The notes under the pieces are model-generated. The model worked only from the letters and a program-made list of their open reading frames with translations. It was not told where the DNA came from and did not search any database. A program made the position numbers and the translations under genes. Positions 1-10,424 of a stretch of DNA of 10,424 nt are shown here, one piece after another. Numbering within the stretch: the first letter of the stretch is position 1; the number at the start of each line of letters is the position of its first letter. The DNA comes from a virus (lineage: Duplodnaviria; Heunggongvirae; Uroviricota; Caudoviricetes), in the IMG/VR virus record IMGVR_UViG_2778261161_000006, positions 1 to 10,424 of that record; one strand, given 5' to 3'.

Positions 1-165
1 ATCTCTGTTGCCGGGATGCCTTCCAGTACAGGCCAGAAAGAGCCATCATCAAGCCCGAGATCGCGGCGTTCGGTTACCGTGGCATTTGAAGAGAAGTATG
101 GCTCCCAGCTGGAGCTGATATTTCGTTTTATCGATCGCGCACTGGCGATTGGTGTGCTGGCCTGA
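1..165 (+). CDS. 3' end of an unidentified ORF upstream of Q (partial; start lies outside the window)
   Basis: Frame 1 is open from position 1 to a TGA at 163-165, ending 17 nt before the Q start. The translation (…[30 protein letters not shown]) matches nothing I recognise. Supported only by the open frame and position. Confidence 0.25.
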
Positions 166-182
166 TTTTGTGGAGAAAGTTA

Positions 183-566
183 ATGCGTGATATTCAGATG
201 GTTCTTGAACGTTGGGGAGCGTGGGCGGCTAATAATCATGAAGATGTGACCTGGTCGTCCATTGCCGCCGGTTTTAAGGGATTAATTCCTTCAAAAGTAA
301 AATCTCGCCCGCAATGTTGTGACGATGACGCGATGATTATTTGCGGGTGCATGGCCCGTCTGAAAAAGAACAACAGCGATTTGCACGATTTATTAGTAGA
401 TTATTATGTAGTCGGTATGACATTCATGTCACTGGCAGGTAAGCATTGCTGCTCTGATGGTTATATCGGGAAAAGGTTACAGAAGGCTGAGGGCATAATT
501 GAAGGGATGTTAATGGCATTAGATATCCGGTTAGAGATGGATATCGTTGTTAATAACTCTAATTAA
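183..566 (+). CDS. quuD: Late-gene antitermination protein Q (127 aa)
   Basis: ATG at 183 preceded by GGAG at 171-174. Cys-rich putative zinc-binding region (…[18 protein letters not shown]…GKHCCSDGY…). Sits immediately upstream of hairpin terminators and the lysis cassette. Matches my recollection of the DLP12 Q-like protein. Confidence 0.8.
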
Positions 567-599
567 TATGCCAATTGTTTACTGAAAGTTATTAAAAAT

Positions 600-618
600 G
601 GGGCGTTGCAACGCCCCC
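600..618 (-). terminator. GC-rich perfect palindrome GGGGCGTTGCAACGCCCC; candidate intrinsic terminator for the antisense porin transcript (possibly bidirectional)
   Basis: 18-nt perfect palindrome at 600-617. On the minus strand it is followed by ATTTTTAATAAC (complement of 585-599). It lies about 140 nt downstream of the nmpC stop on the minus strand. Confidence 0.4.
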
Positions 619-683
619 AAAAATAAAGGGTAATATATAACAGAAGGTTTATATAGTTAGAAGCAAGGTTGTGCTCCTAAAGG

Positions 684-747
684 AAGTGGCTTGAGGGAGC
701 CACTTATATGTTGGGGAGGCAACGCCTCCCGCAACATATCTTTTTCG
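684..747 (+). terminator. Tandem hairpins downstream of Q; the second is a strong intrinsic terminator (candidate tR' of the Q-controlled late transcript)
   Basis: Hairpin 1: AAGTGGCT (684-691) / AGCCACTT (698-705), loop TGAGGG. Hairpin 2: ATATGTTGGGGAGGC (706-720) / GCCTCCCGCAACATAT (724-739), about 15 bp with a one-nt bulge, followed by C and TTTTT (741-745). The position is analogous to lambda pR'-tR'. Confidence 0.5.
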
Positions 748-755
748 TAATCAGA

Positions 756-1853
756 TTAGAACTGGTAAACCAGACCTACAGCAACGATGTCATCAGTGCT
801 TACACCGAGTGCTTTAGTGAAGTCATTTTTGTCAAGCAGGTTGATTTTGTAATCAACGAAAGTAGACATATTTTTGTTGAAGTAATAGGTTGCACCTACA
901 TCAACATATTTGACTAAGTCCTGATCGCCCCATACTCCAAGATCCTTACCTTTAGATTGCAGGTAAGCAACGGACGGACGCAGACCGAAATCGAACTGAT
1001 ATTGTGCAACAGCTTCGAAGTTTTGAGCTTTATTAGCAACGAAGTGATCAGCAAATACAGTCATATTCTGGGTTTCAGAATAGGTAGTGGCCAGGTAAAT
1101 GTTGTTAGCGTCATATTTCAGACCTGCGGCCCAAACTTCTGCATTTTTACCGGAAGCAAATACTTCAGGAAGAACTTTCCCTGCATTAACTTGAGTGTCG
1201 GTACGATCAGATTTCGCATAAGTTGCACCGATACCGAATCCTTCGTATTCATAGGTAGCAGAGAAACCGAAGCCATCACCGTTACCTTCGGTGTAGTTAT
1301 CGAAATCGCTACGATCGTTTTTGCCTTGGTACTGAGCAGCAAAGTTCAGACCATCAACCAGACCAAAGAAGTCGTTGTTACGATAGGTTGCAACACCAGT
1401 GGTGCGACCAGTCATGAACACATCTGTTTGGGTCCAGGTATCGCCACCGAATTCTGGCAGAACGTCAGTCCACGCACCGATGTCGTATGCTACACCGTAG
1501 TTACGGCCGTAATCGATTGAGCCGTAGTCACCGAATTTCAGGCCTGCAAATGCAAGACGGGTTTTGTCTTTGGAGGAACCTTGAGATTCAGCGCGGTTGC
1601 CTTTGAATTCATATTCCCACTGACCGAAACCAGTCAGCTGATCGTTGATTTGGGTTTCGCCTTTGAAGCCCAGACGAACATAAGTAGTATCACCATCATC
1701 TGCATCGTTAGAGGAAAAGTAGTGCTTGGCATTAACTTTCCCGTACAGATCCAGCTTGTTACTGTCTTTATTATAAATTTCAGCTGCCTGAGCAGACATC
1801 GCCATCAGTACTGATGCAGCTACAGCAGAAATTGCCACTGTTAATTTTTTCAT
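756..1853 (-). CDS. nmpC: Outer-membrane general porin, OmpC/OmpF family (NmpC / phage Lc-type), intact 365 aa
   Basis: N-terminal signal peptide [23 protein letters not shown]|AEIYNKD. Porin-like Gly/Tyr/Asp-rich beta-strand pattern and C-terminal YQF with terminal Phe, typical of outer-membrane beta-barrels. Uninterrupted ORF; no IS sequence inside. Confidence 0.92.
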
Positions 1854-2441
1854 CGTGAGCCCTTTTTTTTGAACTATTATTAAAAAATGATGTCACTGCG
1901 CGATAAATATTCATCTAATCAATGTGATTATTTCAAGATGTAAGTTTTAGTTTCTCATTTAATTTGTGAAGTAGATCTCTATTTTTATCTGAACTTTTTC
2001 TATCGAAACCTATTTATGGCTCTTATTTGAACAAAAATAAATCTATTAGCTAATTTATATTAATGGCTGTTATTTATGGTGGTTCTATAATTCGTCTGTT
2101 TAATTTAAACCGGCTAAAAATAACACTGGAAATTATTTATTGGTTATTTGTTGAGGTTTTCTTATGTATTTGTGGTGATGTTTTGAACACTCGGTAGCAT
2201 TCTCATAAATATCATTCAGTGGTTTACGTACGTAAAAAATTGGTTATGCTGTTAAGAGTGGTTACTTCGTCACACAGCTTAAACCCGCCGTCGAGCTGGT
2301 TTTTCCATTTTTTGAGTCTCGATATTAGCTGATAACTCAATACCTGAGTTATTCACTGACTCGGAGTCAGTTACGTTTCTGCTTTTTTGCGATACGTTGT
2401 ATTCCCTCAATTTACACCCGCTTTGTCTGCGAGGTGGGGTT
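1854..2441. promoter_or_regulatory. AT-rich intergenic region of about 590 bp holding the divergent nmpC promoter/leader and the lysis-cassette upstream region; contains repeated TATTTATGG-type motifs and a 14-bp palindrome
   Basis: Visibly AT-rich. Direct repeats ATGGCTCTTATTT (2016-2028) and ATGGCTGTTATTT (2063-2075). TATTTATGG at 2011 and 2071, and TATTTATTGG near 2134. Perfect palindrome TTTACGTACGTAAA at 2223-2236. Confidence 0.4.
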
Positions 2442-2657
2442 ATGAAATTCATGGATAAGTTAACAACTGGAGTCGCCTATGGCACCTCAGCAGGTAGTGC
2501 CGGTTACTGGTTTTTACAGCTGCTCGATAAAGTCACTCCCTCACAGTGGGCAGCAATAGGTGTGCTGGGTAGCCTGGTATTTGGCCTGCTGACGTACCTG
2601 ACAAACCTTTATTTCAAGATTAAAGAAGATAAGCGCAAGGCTGCGAGAGGTGAATAA
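2442..2657 (+). CDS. essD: Class II holin / pinholin with dual-start motif (phage 21 S-like), 71 aa
   Basis: RBS GAGGTGGGG upstream of ATG 2442. N-terminus MKFMDK has two in-frame Met codons (holin/antiholin dual start). Two hydrophobic segments and a charged C-terminus ([13 protein letters not shown]). Stop overlaps the endolysin start (TAATG). Closely resembles phage 21 S as I recall it. Confidence 0.9.
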
Positions 2658-3154
2658 TGCCTCCATCATTACGAAAAGCCGTTGCTGCTGCTATTGGTGG
2701 CGGAGCAATTGCTATAGCATCAGTGTTAATCACTGGCCCAAGTGGTAACGATGGTCTGGAAGGTGTCAGCTACATACCATACAAAGATATTGTTGGTGTA
2801 TGGACTGTATGTCACGGACACACCGGAAAAGACATCATGCTCGGTAAAACGTATACCAAAGCAGAATGCAAAGCACTCTTGAATAAAGACCTTGCCACTG
2901 TCGCCAGACAAATTAACCCGTATATCAAAGTCGATATACCGGAAACAACGCGCGGCGCTCTTTACTCATTCGTTTACAATGTGGGTGCTGGCAATTTTAG
3001 AACATCGACGCTTCTTCGCAAAATAAACCAGGGCGATATCAAAGGCGCATGTGATCAGCTGCGTCGCTGGACATACGCTGGCGGTAAGCAATGGAAAGGC
3101 CTGATGACTCGTCGTGAGATTGAGCGTGAAGTCTGTTTGTGGGGGCAACAGTGA
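2657..3154 (+). CDS. rrrD: SAR (signal-anchor-release) endolysin, T4-lysozyme-like muramidase, 165 aa
   Basis: N-terminal Gly/Ala-rich hydrophobic segment [20 protein letters not shown] (SAR domain). Catalytic E35, D44, T50 in [16 protein letters not shown]. Start overlaps the holin stop. Typical phage 21 R-type. Confidence 0.92.
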
Positions 3155-3612
3155 GCAGAGTAACCGCGATTATATCCGCTCTGATTATCTGCATCATCGT
3201 CAGCCTGTCATGGGCGGTCAATCATTACCGTGATAACGCAATCGCCTACAAAGCCCAGCGCGACAAAAATGCCAGAGAACTGAAGCTAGCGAACGCGGCA
3301 ATTACTGACATGCAGATGCGTCAGCGTGATGTTGCTGCGCTCGATGCAAAATACACGAAGGAGTTAGCTGATGCGAAAGCTGAAAATGATGCTCTGCGTG
3401 ATGATGTTGCCGCTGGTCGTCGTCGGTTGCACATCAAAGCAGTCTGTCAGTCAGTGCGTGAAGCCACCACGGCCTCCGGCGTGGATAATGCAGCCTCCCC
3501 CCGACTGGCAGACACCGCTGAACGGGATTATTTCACCCTCAGAGAGAGGCTGATCACTATGCAAAAACAACTGGAAGGAACCCAGAAGTATATTAATGAG
3601 CAGTGCAGATAG
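3151..3612 (+). CDS. rzpD: Inner-membrane spanin Rz (i-spanin), lambda-type
   Basis: Protein from [13 protein letters not shown]… is near-identical to lambda Rz as I recall it (N-terminal TMD, coiled-coil periplasmic domain). Likely GTG start at 3151 overlapping the endolysin stop (GTGA), preceded by GGGGG; an alternative GTG at 3139 is possible. Confidence 0.85.
3371..3553 (+). CDS. rzoD: Outer-membrane lipoprotein spanin Rz1 (o-spanin), embedded in the +1 frame of Rz, 60 aa
   Basis: [20 protein letters not shown]… has lipobox LVVVGC and a proline-rich mature region ([16 protein letters not shown]). Fully nested within Rz. Near-identical to lambda Rz1 as recalled. Confidence 0.85.
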
Positions 3613-3643
3613 AGCTGACCATATCGATGGGCAACTCATGCAA

Positions 3644-3937
3644 TTATTTTGAGCAATACACACGCGCTTCCAGCGGAGTATAAATGCCTAAAGTAATAAA
3701 ACCGAGCAATCCATTTACGAATGTTTGCTGGGTTTCTGTTTTAACAACATTTTCTGCGCCGCCACAAATTTTGGCTGCATCGACAGTTTTCTTCTGCCCA
3801 ATTCCAGAAACGAAGAAATGATGGGTGATGGTTTCCTTTGGTGCTACTGCTGTCTGTTTGTTTTGAACAGTAAACGTCTGTTGAGCACATCCTGTAATAA
3901 GCAGGGCCAGCGCAGTAGCGAGTAGCATTTTTTTCAT
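3644..3937 (-). CDS. borD: Bor outer-membrane lipoprotein (serum-resistance, Iss family), 97 aa
   Basis: MKKMLLATALALLITGC… has lipobox LITGC. Same length and near-identical sequence to lambda Bor as recalled. Antisense to the lysis genes, as in lambda. Confidence 0.92.
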   Translation of the reverse strand: MKKMLLATALALLITGCAQQTFTVQNKQTAVAPKETITHHFFVSGIGQKKTVDAAKICGGAENVVKTETQQTFVNGLLGFITLGIYTPLEARVYCSK

Positions 3938-4227
3938 GGTGTTATTCCCGATGCTTTTTGAAGTTCGCAGAATCGTATGTGTAGAAAATTAAACAAACCC
4001 TAAACAATGAGTTGAAATTTCATATTGTTAATATTTATTAATGTATGTCAGGTGCGATGAATCGTCATTGTATTCCCGGATTAACTATGTCCACAGCCCT
4101 GACGGGGAACTTCTCTGCGGGAGTGTCCGGGAATAATTAAAAACGATGCACACAGGGTTTAGCGCGTACACGTATTGCATTATGCCAACGCCCCGGTGCT
4201 GACACGGAAGAAACCGGACGTTATGAT

Positions 4228-4638
4228 TTAGCGTGGAAAGATTTGTGTAGTGTTCTGAATGCTCTCAGTAAATAGTAATGAATTATCAAAGGTATAGTAA
4301 TATCTTTTATGTTCGTGGATATTTGTAACCCATCGGAAAACTCCTGCTTTAGCAAGATTTTCCCTGTATTGCTGAAATGTGATTTCTCTTGATTTCAACC
4401 TATCAAAGGACGTTTCTATAAGATGCGTATTTCTTGAGAATTTAACATTTACAACCTTTTTAAGTCCTTTTATTAACACAGTGTTATCGTTTTCTAACAC
4501 AATGTGAATATTATCTGTGGCTAGATAGTAAATATAATGTGAGACATTGTGACGTTTTAGTTCAGAATAAAACAATTCACAGTTTAAATCTTTTCGCACT
4601 TGATCGAATATTTCTTTAAAAATGGCAACCTGAGCCAT
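4228..4638 (-). CDS. ybcV: Hypothetical protein YbcV (DUF1398-type), 136 aa; AT-rich cargo gene
   Basis: ORF open to 4761 (177 aa), but the internal ATG at 4638 is preceded by GGAAGG about 9 nt upstream and gives the 136-aa form I recall for K-12 YbcV. Strongly AT-rich compared with the flanking lambda-like DNA. Confidence 0.7.
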
Positions 4639-4923
4639 TGGTAAAACCTTCCATGTGATACGAGGGCGCGTAGTTTGCATTATCGTTTTTATCGTTTCAA
4701 TCTGGTCTGACCTCTTTGTGTTTTGTTGATGATTTATGTCAAATATTAGGAATGTTTTCAATTAATAGTATTGGTTGTGTAACAAAGTGCGGTCCTGCTG
4801 GCATTCTGGAGGGAAATACAACCGACAGATGTATGTAAGGCCAACGTGCTCAAATCTTCATACAGAAAGATTTGAAGTAATATTTTAACCGCTAGATGAA
4901 GAGCAAGCGCATGGAGCGACAAA

Positions 4924-5130
4924 ATGAATAAAGAACAATCTGCTGATGATCCCTCCGTGGATCTGATTCGTGTAAAAAATATGCTTAATAGCACCATTTC
5001 TATGAGTTACCCTGATGTTGTAATTGCATGTATAGAACATAAGGTGTCTCTGGAAGCATTCAGGGCAATTGAGGCAGCGTTGGTGAAGCACGATAATAAT
5101 ATGAAGGATTATTCCCTGGTGGTTGACTGA
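4924..5130 (+). CDS. ybcW: Small hypothetical protein YbcW, 68 aa
   Basis: ATG at 4924 preceded by GGAG (4911-4914). 68-aa ORF in the position and of the length I recall for DLP12 ybcW. Divergent from ybcV. No recognisable domain. Confidence 0.6.
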
Positions 5131-5294
5131 TCACCATAACTGCTAATCATTCAAACTACTTAACCTGTGACAGAGCCAACACGCAGTCTGTCACTGTCAG
5201 GAAAGTGGTAAAACTGCAACTCAATTACTGCAATGCCCTCGTAATTAAGTGAATTTACAATATCGTCCTGTTCGGAGGGAAGAACGCGGGATGT

Positions 5295-5489
5295 TCATTC
5301 TTCATCACTTTTAATTGATGTATATGCTCTCTTTTCTGACGTTAGCCTCCGACGGCAGGCTTCAATGACCCAGGCTGAGAAATTCCCGGACCCTTTTTGA
5401 TCAAGAGCGATGTTAATTTGTTCAATCATTTGGTTAGGAAAGCGGATGTTGCGGGTTGTTGTTCTGCGGGTTCTGTTCTTCGTTGACAT
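5295..5489 (-). CDS. ylcI: Small basic protein with predicted ribbon-helix-helix fold (YlcI-like), 64 aa
   Basis: Basic N-terminal tail (KNRTRRTTTR) followed by a beta-strand/helix/helix pattern NIRFPNQMIEQINIALDQKGSGNFSAWVIEACRRRL, typical of Arc/MetJ/CopG regulators. Lies in DNA that matches the lambda right end as I recall it. Confidence 0.55.
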   Translation of the reverse strand: MSTKNRTRRTTTRNIRFPNQMIEQINIALDQKGSGNFSAWVIEACRRRLTSEKRAYTSIKSDEE

Positions 5490-5688
5490 GAGGTTGCCCC
5501 GTATTCAGTGTCGCTGATTTGTATTGTCTGAAGTTGTTTTTACGTTAAGTTGATGCGGATCAATTAATACGATACCTGCGTCATAATTGATTATTTGACG
5601 TGGTTTGATGGCGTAGATGCACGTTGTGACATGTAGATGATAATTATTATCATTTTGCGGGTCCTTTCCGGCGATCCGACAGGTTACG

Positions 5689-5700
5689 GGGCGGCGACCT
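5689..5700 (+). other. cosN: lambda cohesive-end sequence GGGCGGCGACCT (terminase nicking site)
   Basis: Exact 12-nt lambda cohesive-end sequence, flanked on both sides by sequence matching the lambda genome termini as I recall them (…CCGACAGGTTACG | GGGCGGCGACCTCGCGGGTTTTCGCTATTTATGAAAATTTTCCGG…). Confidence 0.9.
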
Positions 5701-5739
5701 CGCGGGTTTTCGCTATTTATGAAAATTTTCCGGTTTAAG

Positions 5740-5856
5740 GCATTTCCGTTCTTCTTCGTCGTAACTTAATGTTTTTATTTAAAATACCCCCTGAAAAGAA
5801 AGGAAACGACAGGTGCTGAAAACGAGCTTTTGGGCCTCTGTCGTTTCCTTTCTCTG
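5740..5856 (+). promoter_or_regulatory. cosB: terminase small-subunit binding region (R3, IHF site I1, R2, R1)
   Basis: R3-like CATTTCCGTTCTTCTTCG (5741-5758). AT-rich I1-like stretch (about 5768-5786). R2 GAAAGGAAACGACAGG (5798-5813) and R1 CTGTCGTTTCCTTTC (5838-5852) form a 15-nt inverted repeat. Positioned between cosN and the Nu1 start, as in lambda. Confidence 0.75.
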
Positions 5857-5877
5857 TTTTTGGCCGTGGAATGAACA

Positions 5878-6423
5878 ATGGAAGTCAACAAAAAGCAGCT
5901 GGCTGACATTTTCGGTGCGAGTATCCGTACCATTCAGAACTGGCAGGAACAGGGAATGCCCGTTCTGCGAGGCGGTGGCAAGGGTAATGAGGTGCTTTAT
6001 GACTCTGCCGCCGTTATAAGATGGTATGCCGAAAGGGATGCTGAAATTGAGAACGAAAAGCTGCGCCGGGAAGTTGAAGAACTGCGGCAGGCCAGCGAGA
6101 CAGATCTCCAGCCAGGGACTATTGAGTACGAACGCCATCGACTTACGCGTGCGCAGGCCGACGCACAGGAGTTGAAAAATGCCAGAGACTCCGCTGAAGT
6201 GGTGGAAACCGCATTCTGTACTTTCGTGCTGTCGCGGATCGCAGGTGAAATTGCCAGTATTCTCGACGGGATCCCCCTGTCGGTGCAGCGGCGTTTTCCG
6301 GAACTGGAAAACCGACATGTTGATTTCCTGAAACGGGATATCATCAAAGCCATGAACAAAGCAGCCGCGCTGGATGAACTGATACCGGGGTTGCTGAGTG
6401 AATATATCGAACAGTCAGGTTAA
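5878..6423 (+). CDS. nohD: Terminase small subunit Nu1, 181 aa
   Basis: MEVNKKQLADIFGASIRTIQNWQEQGMPVLRGGGKGNEV… (winged helix-turn-helix N-terminus) is near-identical to lambda Nu1 as recalled. 3' end overlaps the A start, as in lambda. Confidence 0.93.
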   Translation: MEVNKKQLADIFGASIRTIQNWQEQGMPVLRGGGKGNEVLYDSAAVIRWYAERDAEIENEKLRREVEELRQASETDLQPGTIEYERHRLTRAQADAQELKNARDSAEVVETAFCTFVLSRIAGEIASILDGIPLSVQRRFPELENRHVDFLKRDIIKAMNKAAALDELIPGLLSEYIEQSG

Positions 6424-7501
6424 CAGGCTGCGGCATTTTGTCCGCGCCGGGCTTCGCTCACTGTTCAGGCCGGAGCCACAGACCGCCGTTGAATGGGCGG
6501 ATGCTAATTACTATCTCCCGAAAGAATCCGCATACCAGGAAGGGCGCTGGGAAACACTGCCCTTTCAGCGGGCCATCATGAATGCGATGGGCAGCGACTA
6601 CATCCGTGAGGTGAATGTGGTGAAGTCTGCCCGTGTCGGTTATTCCAAAATGCTGCTGGGTGTTTATGCCTACTTTATAGAGCATAAGCAGCGCAACACA
6701 CTTATCTGGTTGCCGACGGATGGTGATGCCGAGAACTTTATGAAAACCCACGTTGAGCCGACCATCCGCGATATTCCGTCGCTGCTGGCGCTGGCTCCGT
6801 GGTATGGCAAAAAGCACCGGGATAACACGCTCACTATGAAGCGTTTTTCCAATGGTCGTGGCTTCTGGTGCCTGGGCGGTAAAGCGGCAAAAAACTACCG
6901 TGAAAAGTCGGTGGATGTGGCGGGTTATGATGAACTTGCTGCCTTTGATGAGGATATTGAACAGGAAGGCTCTCCGACGTTCCTTGGCGACAAACGTATT
7001 GAAGGCTCGGTCTGGCCAAAGTCCATCCGTGGCTCCACGCCCAAAGTGAGAGGCACCTGCCAGATTGAGCGTGCAGCCAGTGAATCCCCGCATTTTATGC
7101 GTTTTCATGTTGCCTGCCCGCACTGCGGGGAGGAGCAGTATCTTAAATTTGGCGACAAAGAGACGCCGTTTGGCCTCAAATGGACGCCGGATGACCCCTC
7201 CAGCGTGTTTTATCTCTGCGAGCATAATGCCTGCGTCATCCGCCAGCAGGAGCTGGACTTTACTGATGCCCGTTATATCTGCGAAAAGACCGGGATCTGG
7301 ACCCGTGATGGCATTCTCTGGTTTTCGTCATCCGGTGTGACCGTGGAAACGGCCCGCCGCATTCTGGCAGCTGCACCACAGAGTGCACAGGCGCGCAGTG
7401 ACACTGCGCTGGATCGTCTGATGCAGGGGGCACCGGCACCGCTGGCTGCAGGTAACCCGGCATCTGATGCCGTTAACGATTTGCTGAACACACCAGTGTA
7501 A
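6398..7501 (+). pseudogene. A: Truncated terminase large subunit A (N-terminal ~313 aa) fused to ~54 codons from the 3' end of the gene preceding D (C/Nu3 region); deletion remnant
   Basis: MNISNSQVNRLRHFVRAGLRSLF… through …GILWFSSSG matches lambda gpA N-terminal half as recalled. Lambda A is about 641 aa, whereas this ORF is 367 aa. After the junction near 7336 the sequence (VTVETARRILAAAPQ…NDLLNTPV) is not gpA and runs straight into the D RBS. Confidence 0.85.
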
Positions 7502-7510
7502 GGGATGTTT

Positions 7511-7843
7511 ATGACGAGCAAAGAAACCTTTACCCATTACCAGCCGCTGGGCAACAGTGACCCGGCACATACGGCAACCGCGCCCGGCGGATTGAGTGCG
7601 AAAGCGCCTACAATGACCCCGCTGATGCTGGACACCTCCACCCGTAAGCTGGTTGTGTGGGATGGCACCACCGACGGTGCTGCCGTTGGCATTCTGGCGG
7701 TTGCTGCTGACCAGACCAGCACCACGCTGACGTTCTACAAGTCCGGCACGTTCCGTTATGAGGATGTGCTCTGGCCGGAGGCTGCCAGCGACGAGACGAA
7801 AAAGCGGACCGCGTTTGCCGGAACGGCAATCAGCATCGTTTAA
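7511..7843 (+). CDS. D: Head decoration protein D, intact, 110 aa
   Basis: [27 protein letters not shown]…TAISIV is near-identical to lambda gpD as recalled. RBS AAGGGA 5 nt upstream of ATG 7511. Confidence 0.92.
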
Positions 7844-7860
7844 CCTTACCCTTCATCACT

Positions 7861-7887
7861 AAAGGCCGCCTGTGCGGCTTTTTTTAC
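7861..7887 (+). terminator. Hairpin plus T-tract in the D-E intergenic region (intrinsic terminator/attenuator-like)
   Basis: AAAGGCCGCCTGTGCGGCTTTTTTT: GCCGC/GCGGC stem with flanking A/T pairing, followed by 7 T. Confidence 0.5.
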
Positions 7888-7898
7888 GGGATTTTTTT

Positions 7899-8405
7899 AT
7901 GTCGATGTACACAACCGCCCAGCTGCTGGCGGCAAATGAGAAGAAATTTAAGTTTGATCCGCTGTTTCTGCGTCTCTTTTTCCGTGAGAGCTATCCCTTC
8001 ACCACGGAGAAAGTCTATCTCTCACAAATTCCGGGACTGGTAAACATGGCGCTGTACGTTTCGCCGATTGTTTCCGGTGAGGTTATCCGCTCCCGTGGCG
8101 GCTCCACCTCTGAATTTACACCGGGATATGTCAAGCCGAAGCATGAGGTGAATCCGCAGATGACCCTGCGTCGCCTGCCGGATGAAGATCCACAGAATCT
8201 GGCGGACCCGGCTTACCGCCGCCGTCGCATCATCCTGCAGAACATGCGAGACGAAGAGCTGGCCATTGCTCAGGTCGAAGAGATGCAGGCCGTTTCTGCC
8301 GTGCTTAAGGGCAAATATACCATGACCGGTGAAGCCTTCGATCCGGTTGAAGTGGATAGAGGTCTTTTTAGAAGAAGGTCTCTCCGTTACTGCACCTGCT
8401 TCTGA
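7899..8405 (+). pseudogene. E: Truncated major capsid protein E (first ~153 codons of 341) followed by 15 out-of-context codons and a stop; deletion remnant
   Basis: MSMYTTAQLLAANEKKFKFDPLFLRLFFRESYPFTTEKVYLSQIPGLVNMALYV…EAFDPVEVD matches the lambda gpE N-terminus as recalled, then diverges at 8358 ([15 protein letters not shown]). Confidence 0.88.
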
Positions 8406-9840
8406 TTATATTGTTGCTGAAACGACTTATAAATTTGGCGCAACTGATCCTTATTCTGAATCAGTTGCGGTAAATTTAATTTTAGATTTTAAACAAGGTA
8501 ATGGATTTTATAGTTCGTATCCTGTTTTGAGTAAGTCAGACATTAGCGGGAATAAGATTTACGCTAATGATGAAGTTATTGTCCGTAGTCAGAACGCGTT
8601 AAGGATGATTGCAGGTGATTACGGTGTCATATGGCGAAATGATGGAGCAAATACTTACTTGCTCATGACTGATAAAGGCGACCAGTACGGTGGCTGGAAC
8701 GGTCTTCGACCATTTGCAGTAAATAACGCAACAGGTGAAGTGACGATCAATACATCACTTAATTCTCCTAAGGGGATTAAGGGAAATTCTGATACAGCTA
8801 CGAAACTTCAGACAGCAATAAAAATATCTGGTGTTTCGTTTGATGGTTCTACTGATATCACTTTAACCGCTGCGCATGTTGCTGCTTTTGCCAGAAGAGC
8901 AACGGATACGTATGCCGATGCGGATGGGGGCGTTCCCTGGAATGCCGAATCAGGCGCTTACAATGTCACTCGCTCTGGCGACAGCTATATTCTGGTTAAC
9001 TTCTATACCGGAGTCGGAAGTTGCCGGACCTTGCAGATGAAGGCGCATTACAGAAATGGTGGTCTGTTCTACCGTTCTTCAAGAGACGGTTATGGTTTTG
9101 AGGATGACTGGGCAGAAGTTTATACCTCGAAAAATCTTCCACCAGAAAGCTACCCAGTCGGCGCACCAATCCCGTGGCCATCAGATACCGTTCCGTCTGG
9201 TTATGCCCTGATGCAGGGGCAGACTTTTGACAAATCTGCCTACCCGAAACTTGCAGTCGCTTATCCGTCAGGCGTGATCCCTGATATGCGTGGCTGGACG
9301 ATTAAGGGCAAGCCCGCCAGTGGTCGTGCCGTATTGTCTCAGGAACAGGACGGCATTAAATCGCACACTCACAGCGCCAGCGCATCCAGTACGGATTTGG
9401 GTACGAAAACCACATCGTCGTTTGATTACGGCACTAAATCCACGAATAACACCGGGGCGCATACGCACAGTCTGAGCGGCTCTACAAGCTCGGCCGGAGC
9501 ACACTCGCACGTTGATGGTCGCAGGTTTAATACAAGCACTTTTAAAGACACCTATCAGTATGGTTCTACAGCTGTCGGAAGTAACTCATACCAGGTACAA
9601 GGGGCGGTTGGTCTGGGCATTGGCACGATGGCGAATACGAACTCTGCTGGCGCGCATACCCACTCACTGTCCGGCACTGCTGCAAGCGCAGGTGCACACG
9701 CACATACTGTCGGTATTGGTGCTCATACGCACTCCGTTGCGATTGGCTCACATGGACACACCATCACCGTTAACGCTGCTGGTAACGCGGAAAACACCGT
9801 CAAAAACATCGCATTTAACTATATTGTGAGGCTTGCATAA
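8359..9840 (+). pseudogene. stf: 5'-truncated side tail fibre gene (stf-like): non-lambda AT-rich central domain plus lambda Stf / T4 gp37-like C-terminal His-box domain
   Basis: Continuous frame from the junction to the stop, with no credible start of its own (the GTG at 8329 lies inside the E remnant in another frame). C-terminal ~230 aa ([71 protein letters not shown]…[11 protein letters not shown]) match lambda Stf as recalled. Confidence 0.8.
9361..9770 (+). repeat. Internal repeated His-box (HxH) motifs of the tail-fibre distal domain
   Basis: Repeated GAHTHSLSG(S/T)…AGAH(S/A)[18 protein letters not shown] and [11 protein letters not shown] segments within the stf-like ORF. Confidence 0.6.
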
Positions 9841-10424
9841 TGGCATTCAGAATGAGTGAACAAGCACGGACCATAAAAATTTATAATCTGCTGGCCGGAA
9901 CTAATGAATTTATTGGTGAAGGTGATGCATATATTCCGCCTCATACAGGTCTGCCAGCAAACAGTACCGATATTGCACCACCAGATATTCCTGCTGGCTT
10001 TGTGGCTGTTTTCAACAGTGATGAGGCATCGTGGCATCTCGTTGAAGACCATCGGGGTAAAACGGTTTATGACGTAGCGTCAGGGGACGCGTTATTTATT
10101 TCTGAACTCGGTCCGTTACCGGAAAATGTTACCTGGTTATCGCCGGAAGGGGAGTTTCAGAAGTGGAACGGCACAGCCTGGGTGAAAGATGCAGAAGCAG
10201 AAAAACTGTTCCGGATCCGGGAGGCGGAAGAAACAAAAAACAGCCTGATGCAGGTAGCCAGTGAGCATATTGCGCCACTTCAGGATGCTGTAGATCTGGA
10301 AATCGCAACGGAGGAAGAAACCTCATTGCTGGAAGCCTGGAAAAAGTATCGGGTGTTGCTGAACCGTGTTGATACATCAACTGCACCTGATATTGAGTGG
10401 CCTACGAACCCTGTCAGGGAGTAA
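9840..10424 (+). CDS. tfa: Tail fibre assembly protein Tfa, intact, 194 aa
   Basis: [54 protein letters not shown]… is near-identical to lambda Tfa as recalled. Start overlaps the stf stop (TAATG). Stop at 10422-10424. Confidence 0.9.

Follow-up and report, generated by a model that had tools for sequence, protein, structure and literature searches.

The closest described relatives of the gene considered here are two phage-borne porins of Escherichia coli: Lc, encoded by the active phage PA-2, and NmpC, encoded by DLP12 (qsr'), the cryptic prophage that lies at argU in the K-12 chromosome. The gene itself occupies positions 756 to 1853, on the minus strand, of a 10,424-nucleotide stretch of viral DNA (Caudoviricetes; IMG/VR record IMGVR_UViG_2778261161_000006, positions 1 to 10,424), which is referred to as the window in what follows. 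The literature on lc and nmpC reportedly dates from 1985-86 (and is said to include Blasband, Marcotte & Schnaitman 1986, J Biol Chem 261:12723), with IpeX, a small RNA (sRNA) of the same transcript, following in 2006; lysogenic conversion by PA-2, as papers from the Schnaitman laboratory reportedly describe it, is the loss of OmpC, which is the receptor of PA-2. The original report of IpeX, cited by the papers that describe this RNA, is said to be that of Castillo-Keller, Vuong & Misra in 2006 (J Bacteriol 188:576). Later papers describe IpeX as an RNA of 167 nucleotides (nt) that comes from DLP12 and is produced within the porin transcript (PMC12197685, PMC5069750, PMC3333887); two of them have it repressing host OmpC and OmpF, also when ipeX is present in multicopy (PMC12197685, PMC5069750).

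The window gene is a member of this Lc/NmpC phage-porin module in every feature that can be tested here. We have very little doubt that it encodes the lambdoid-prophage porin NmpC/Lc, in what is probably a self-contained leftward transcription unit (a 'moron') of a DLP12-type prophage at argU, with the antiterminator gene Q on one side and the late/lysis region on the other. The direct observations concern the integrity of the gene, its family, its near-identity to Lc and NmpC, its genomic position, its structured 3' untranslated region (UTR) with a terminator, and its prevalence. Across window positions 567 to 2396, PA-2 DNA is 97.7% identical, and lc agrees with the window gene in its slot, flanked by the Q side and the lysis genes, in orientation, in a signal peptide of 23 amino acids (aa), in upstream CRP-type sites and in the 3' UTR; the difference is that PA-2 is an active phage, whereas the window copy lies in a defective prophage. 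The Lc protein (GenBank J02580.1) and the window porin are identical at 362 of 365 residues (99.2%), the substitutions that separate them being V59A, R99H and V154F, and the porin of another active temperate phage, PhiR29_1, is 100% identical. NmpC of K-12 (b0553), with its IS5 removed, also matches at 362 of 365 residues (99.2%). The K-12 gene lies at the same argU-integrated locus and has the same neighbours (quuD, essD, rrrD, rzpD, borD, ybcV, ybcW, ylcI and nohD), but the two prophages have lost different segments and only the K-12 porin gene is interrupted. The original prediction had placed an IS5 insertion in the K-12 copy, and this is correct: nmpC is annotated there as a pseudogene split by IS5B after about codon 346, so that the protein would gain a foreign tail. 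The flanks of the insertion map to window 813/814, where the reading frame is unbroken.

The frame is a single uninterrupted one of 365 aa with an ATG start, and the claim of an intact NmpC-type porin gene, of the OmpC/F family, on the strand opposite to the late genes stands. The Pfam Porin_1 model (PF00267) is covered over its full length (model 1-337 of 337 by residues 29-365, E=1.8e-156, in a profile search of the window's proteins), and the mature chains of the solved OmpC, OmpK36, PhoE and OmpF structures align end to end with residues 24-365, with E-values down to 5e-136. The protein scores 527.8 bits against the NCBIfam model of the OmpC subfamily, for which the cut-off is 484, and does not reach the thresholds of the two equivalog models, PhoE and OmpF. 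Global identities in pairwise alignment are 62.3% to K-12 OmpC, 61.9% to PhoE and 57.7% to OmpF. The predicted signal peptide (MKK...AQA|AEIYNKD) is 23 aa long, with an A-X-A-type cleavage site and a mature N-terminus of the AE(I/V)YNKD form that is typical of general porins; the PA-2 record annotates a signal peptide of 69 nt (23 aa) for its own porin. The loop-3 (L3) motif PEFGG is at residues 133-137, and the chain ends in GLVYQF, with the terminal aromatic Phe that is the beta-signal for BAM assembly. Pairwise alignment also places six residues (K, R, R, R, D and E) that are identical to those of K-12 OmpC at positions which we take to be the OmpC eyelet, a basic cluster facing an acidic L3. 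With about 60% identity over its full length to solved trimeric porins, the product is predicted to be a 16-stranded trimeric beta-barrel with channel activity. In its fold family, its length, PEFGG, OmpC-aligned eyelet residues and C-terminal Phe it resembles the chromosomal OmpC, PhoE and OmpF, and within the wider Porin_1 family it is an ordinary general porin. It differs from these three in being only 58-62% identical to them and phage-borne, in having its own regulatory region and a 3' UTR regulator, and in differences and indels that are clustered in patches, presumably surface loops.

An intact copy of nmpC is the common state. Among 5426 complete E. coli genomes, 2465 (~45%) carry 80% or more of the gene, and 854 records match it at 99% identity or better; nmpC is truncated in BL21(DE3) and IS5-split in K-12, and the porin of 434B, a derivative of phage 434, is annotated as 'IS5 insertion after codon 346'. 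The same layout of Q, porin and S is found in 36 phage records, among them those of PA-2 and 434B. These records dispose of the notion that the reading frame is a chromosomal ompC/ompF paralogue that merely adjoins phage remnants and is not phage cargo at all. The score above the OmpC subfamily cut-off and the name 'ompC' that RefSeq gives to some alleles speak for such a paralogue, but identity to K-12 OmpC is only 62%, the locus is that of the argU-integrated DLP12 prophage, and 36 sequenced phage genomes have this gene with these flanks, in every case between Q and S. Such an origin is thereby refuted, and we accord it practically no chance of being right.

Phage alleles of the porin are either 365 or 360 aa long, which makes two length classes. 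Their first 180 residues hardly vary, and the differences are confined to five patches at residues 182-190, 219-236, 268-272, 307-317 and 340-352. These patches, which match the indels relative to OmpC, are probably the surface loops L4-L8. Patchy variation of this kind suggests receptor or immune selection, or else mosaic recombination.

The original prediction missed IpeX. The spacer of 189 bp between Q and the porin belongs to the porin unit: as the alignment reads to us, 184 of its 189 positions are identical to K-12 (97%), and the whole spacer is accounted for by the porin's own 3' UTR and terminator, which correspond to IpeX. The IpeX-equivalent region, ~167 nt, runs from 755 to 589 on the minus strand (589..755) and ends in an intrinsic terminator, for which a terminator scan finds a stem at 617-600 (minus strand) followed by a U-run. 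The segment from stop codon to terminator (585-755 on the minus strand, 171 nt) folds into five predicted hairpins at -62.4 kcal/mol (z=-7.95). The IpeX of DLP12 and PA-2 has the same place between the porin stop codon and the terminator and the same length of ~167 nt, and we see no material difference. If the window's IpeX tail represses OmpC and OmpF as its K-12 counterpart does, a function that the literature on near-identical sequences predicts for it, the unit would swap porins rather than merely add one.

On the other side of the gene, the 5' UTR, core promoter and upstream regulatory region of the porin occupy 1854..1994 (minus strand) within a porin-S interval of 588 bp that is 33% GC. 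The Shine-Dalgarno (SD) element is a GGG lying 7-9 nt ahead of the ATG. The candidate promoter, TTGAAA (1936-1931)-18-GAATAT (1912-1907), is a weight-matrix guess at 4.4 bits that would start transcription at ~1900 on the minus strand. A CRP-type site, TGTGA-N6-TCTCT, is placed at 1962-1982 by offset from the annotation of the PA-2 record J02580.1, and would lie near -72 of that candidate promoter. Two segments, 1864-1923 and 1962-1994, are invariant across the 11 alleles compared, and the second of them holds the CRP-type site. The unit thus has a clear intrinsic terminator, and for a promoter a weak consensus match that lies in an allele-invariant region together with a CRP-type site annotated in PA-2. 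Within the coding sequence, CAGUGGC at porin codons 5-7 (1834..1840, minus strand) is complementary to the 5' seed GCCACUG of RybB, with a predicted duplex energy of -21.1 kcal/mol (RybB sequence taken from K-12). The nmpC mRNA is a target of this sigmaE-dependent sRNA (PMC3333887). Catabolite control, control by RybB and surface expression of the window porin are all expected from the literature on near-identical sequences.

The course of events that we propose is as follows. The unit would be transcribed from a promoter of its own in the AT-rich DNA on the right of the gene, where there is also a CRP-type site, and the product would be exported by way of its 23-residue Sec signal peptide to form a 16-stranded trimer, a general-diffusion porin like OmpC, OmpF and PhoE, to whose family it belongs. 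Part of this transcript would be the ~167-nt structured 3' UTR with its intrinsic terminator, that is IpeX, which would lower the synthesis of OmpC and OmpF. The phage porin would in this way replace those of the host, with a change of permeability and the disappearance of OmpC as a receptor for OmpC-dependent phages, and the RybB seed match would put the porin mRNA under the sigmaE envelope-stress response. A porin/IpeX unit of this kind would be the molecular basis of PA-2 lysogenic conversion, and the effect on the cell surface that the original prediction claimed for this gene would be one already established for the near-identical Lc/NmpC system and not a new one.

Several points weigh against this account. 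The porin promoter is a weak weight-matrix match, and its AT-rich surroundings (33% GC) may be silenced; the IpeX assignment is based on position, length and the 97% identity to the K-12 region and not on a match to a model (a scan of positions 1-4000 against Rfam at E<=1 returned no matches, and Rfam holds no IpeX family); and the title of a 1998 paper by Prilipov et al. calls the intact nmpC of E. coli B 'quiescent'. A rival reading is that the gene is intact but silent in its host, a relic kept by drift in a decaying prophage and yielding neither porin nor IpeX under natural conditions. The heavy decay of the prophage, from which the early region and most of the head genes are deleted, the AT-rich upstream region, the word quiescent, and the tolerance of loss that is implied by truncation in BL21(DE3) and the IS5 split in K-12 all favour such silence. 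Nevertheless, reading frame, signal peptide, SD element, promoter region and 3' UTR are all intact here and identical, or nearly so, to those of an active phage; 854 records match the gene at >=99% identity; proteomes of wild E. coli strains include NmpC protein; and the concentration of allele differences in discrete patches of the C-terminal half would fit selection on an expressed surface protein. Silence of the window gene appears doubtful to us on this evidence.

The position of the porin was correctly identified by the original prediction as the Q-to-S interval in which other lambdoid phages carry cargo. Q lies at 183-566 and the holin gene (S) at 2442-2657, and both phage 21 and Lambda_ev087 have cargo in the corresponding place: tRNAs in phage 21, blc and other genes in Lambda_ev087, present or absent at one slot. 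In phages with other types of Q, homology to the S region of the window begins only ~16 bp before S. In Lambda_ev087 (locus L007, region 890-3941) the Q gene is 87% identical to the window Q over its first 375 nt, and a strong plus-strand terminator comes right after it; the Q-S slot is then filled by an antisense gene for the outer-membrane lipocalin (blc), next to which come a ybgA-like gene and two hypothetical genes. With a related Q followed by an antisense lipocalin gene in that phage, the slot recurrently takes outer-membrane cargo. The stx genes of Stx phages and the tRNAs of phage 21 occupy the same slot between antiterminator and holin, and this cargo is co-oriented with, and dependent on, the late transcript. 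One paper describes stx as co-transcribed with the late genes (PMC8065619). The window porin is unlike both in its opposite orientation, in having its own terminator and a candidate promoter of its own, and in probably lying upstream of the late promoter. Two small plus-strand reading frames in the slot look spurious. One, at 708-917, overlaps the 3' end of the porin gene and is named 'ORF1' in the PA-2 record; the other, of 44 aa at 2063-2197, is a 'hypothetical protein' of some phage records that lies in the most variable part of the AT-rich spacer. The frame at 957-1520, like that at 708-917, is a putative shadow of the porin frame.

Where late transcription starts is a separate question, and on this question the original prediction, that Q-dependent late transcription would run antisense through the porin, is not supported: there is no good sigma-70 promoter after Q, and the lysis-cassette promoter essDp, starting at ~1902, lies to the right of the porin and is directed away from it. 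To our knowledge all of the well-studied lambdoid phages have pR' directly after Q, and this analogy weighs in favour of antisense transcription. On such a model, pR' would lie within 567-700, and RNA polymerase modified by Q would pass the hairpins at 684-741 and run antisense over the porin to S; the porin would then be silenced on activation of the late genes, by transcriptional interference and by antisense RNA. Phage 21, whose Q is of the same Pfam family (PF06530) as the window Q, has pR', a Q-binding element (QBE) and tR' that begin 7 bp after Q and are complete within 100 bp. Phage 434B is viable with the order Q, IS5-split porin, S, and in the related phage ev087 Q is followed directly by a terminator that has a long U-tract and precedes the antisense blc. 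The window itself offers twin hairpins and then CUUUUUCG at 684..741 (plus strand; -34.8 kcal/mol, z=-5.94), which are terminator-like for rightward transcription from Q and could act as tR', and a weak promoter-like TTGCAA-19-TAATAT at 606-636. The twin hairpins are the same DNA as two of the hairpins of IpeX; with their U-tract they would stop un-antiterminated transcription leaving Q.

Against this model stands the weakness of any promoter near Q. The best plus-strand sigma-70 match in the Q-porin spacer reaches 5.1 bits with a non-functional-looking spacer of 19 nt, compared with 10.4 bits on the same scale for the annotated pR' of phage 21, and a promoter scan found no plus-strand promoter in the Q-porin spacer, the whole of which is accounted for by the porin 3' UTR and terminator. 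Promoter assignment could not be transferred by homology, since no local alignment of the post-Q region of ev087 with either of the two intergenic regions of the window beat dinucleotide shuffles. The only Q-responsive promoter of the cassette that has been described experimentally maps to ~1902, and the most conserved non-coding block of the module is at 2222-2362, away from Q. An antisense late transcript over the porin seems to us rather unlikely for these reasons.

The published DLP12 lysis-cassette promoter, essDp, is assigned to 1871..1902 (plus strand) by primer mapping. The DLP12 lysis-module paper describes a cloned transcriptional regulatory region from -121 to +650; the forward primer of that amplicon matches window 1781-1800 exactly, and this puts the start at ~1902 on the plus strand, divergent from the porin. 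The reverse primer has no match in the window within 2 mismatches (the window seems to have two extra bases relative to the primer), and the +650 end is placed by amplicon arithmetic only. Just upstream of ~1902 is a sigmaE-like motif, GAACTA (1871-1876)-N16-TCACT (1893-1897), which was read from the sequence and is invariant across alleles. RpoE and a Q-like protein reportedly control the DLP12 lysis cassette, and the motif agrees with this. A study of sigmaE by genomic SELEX (systematic evolution of ligands by exponential enrichment) lists no peak at essD, however, and this counts against a sigmaE-type promoter there.

The conserved block upstream of S (2222..2362, plus strand) offers a second place for a late promoter. 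It is ~140 nt long, lies 80-220 nt upstream of the holin gene and is nearly invariant across the 11 alleles (variable sites amount to 6 of 138 in 2215-2352, as against 24-27% in flanking non-coding DNA). It contains a perfect 14-bp palindrome, TTTACGTACGTAAA, at 2222-2235, a promoter-like TTTACG-16-TATGCT, a hairpin with a U-tract at ~2275-2314 and further hairpins, and in its layout it resembles the short pR'-tR' leader of phage 21; a candidate cognate pR'/tR' is what these elements would make up. The one polymorphism of the 2275-2314 hairpin, T/G at 2297, switches it between two alternative stems, so that a hairpin is kept in both allelic forms. As a 71-nt segment, 2255-2325 was rejected as a plus-strand terminator, folding no better than its shuffles (z=+0.88); the short hairpin with its U-tract remains a candidate. 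For this type of Q, the block may be where late promoter and terminator really lie. Late transcription probably starts to the right of the porin, at essDp (~1902) or in the block at 2222-2314, and diverges from it, a placement that we prefer without great assurance.

The predicted starts of essDp (~1902, plus strand) and of the candidate porin promoter (~1900, minus strand) nearly coincide, within 60 nt that do not vary among the alleles. It is conceivable, if distinctly speculative, that back-to-back, overlapping promoters of the porin/IpeX unit and of the Q- and sigmaE-responsive lysis cassette constitute a mutually exclusive switch, and, as a related point, that the qut site of QuuD is the block at 2222-2362. 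If overlapping promoters did work in this way, envelope stress or Q activity would turn the lysis cassette on and the porin off at the promoter, with RybB acting likewise on the mRNA, and among lambdoid Q genes the QuuD type would be the first to have 1.7 kb of inserted cargo between the gene and the promoter on which its product acts.

The setting of the unit is a much reduced prophage. Its Q gene, quuD (183..566, plus strand), encodes an intact late antiterminator of the Q21 family, 127 aa long (PF06530, E=9.8e-54), and is annotated as quuD in relatives. The lysis cassette (2442..3612, plus strand) is recognized from its reading frames, a profile search and the annotation of relatives as comprising essD (an S21/P21-type holin, 2442-2657), rrrD (lysozyme) and rzpD/rzoD (the Rz/Rz1 spanins). 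To the right of it come Bor, YbcV, YbcW, YlcI, Nu1/NohD, a truncated large terminase, head remnants and tail-fibre genes, and the genes follow one another as they do in the K-12 cryptic prophage DLP12 at argU and in fuller relatives from other strains. Past the lysis cassette several small genes point leftward: bor, for a serum-resistance lipoprotein, at 3644-3937, ybcV (DUF1398) at 4228-4761 and ylcI (DUF3950) at 5295-5489, all on the minus strand. With bor, ybcV and ylcI also leftward, the porin is one of several leftward cargo units in the late region. The longest ybcV reading frame in the window is 177 aa, compared with 136 aa for the annotated gene. A tail-fibre reading frame of 503 aa at 8329-9840 (plus strand) starts inside the truncated reading frame of the major capsid protein and repeats G-A-H-(T/A/S)-H-(S/T) motifs near its C-terminus; neither of the two related prophage loci that were compared has a match to 8359-8826.

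Comparison with one of the fuller relatives (L001) identifies two deletions. At the first, a fragment of yfdR (1-75) runs straight into what is left of a DUF968 gene, ~100 bp of its 3' end, and 9.4 kb are gone: the early and immunity region with repressor, cro-like, replication and nin-region genes. The second, of 3.9 kb, extends from the terminase C-terminus through most of the protease and fuses the terminase N-terminus to the end of the protease gene; by the same comparison most of the head genes are missing. The retained segments are 1-75, 71-7337 and 7332-8358, with overlaps of 5 and 6 bp at the junctions. Neither junction is contiguous in any of the 5426 complete E. coli genomes, and the junction pattern was not found among GTDB species representatives. 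The porin therefore sits in a strain-specific, non-inducible remnant. With no early region remaining that could drive Q or respond to induction, the prophage-induction experiment that had been proposed for this gene cannot work at the window locus.

The porin gene, its position and orientation, the IS5 difference from K-12 and the role in lysogenic conversion were already known, and there is nothing new in the finding as it was originally put. Its value lies partly in annotation, RefSeq labelling such genes 'porin' or 'ompC' and phage records 'OmpD' (Salmonella OmpD is often used as an annotation name for such porins), and partly in the late promoter of a widespread module of Q, porin and lysis genes, for which three different places follow from the sigmaE-type essDp, from the rule that pR' follows Q, and from the conserved block ahead of S. 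For the bacterial host, an intact nmpC with IpeX can alter porin-dependent antibiotic uptake and susceptibility to phages, setting wild strains apart from K-12.

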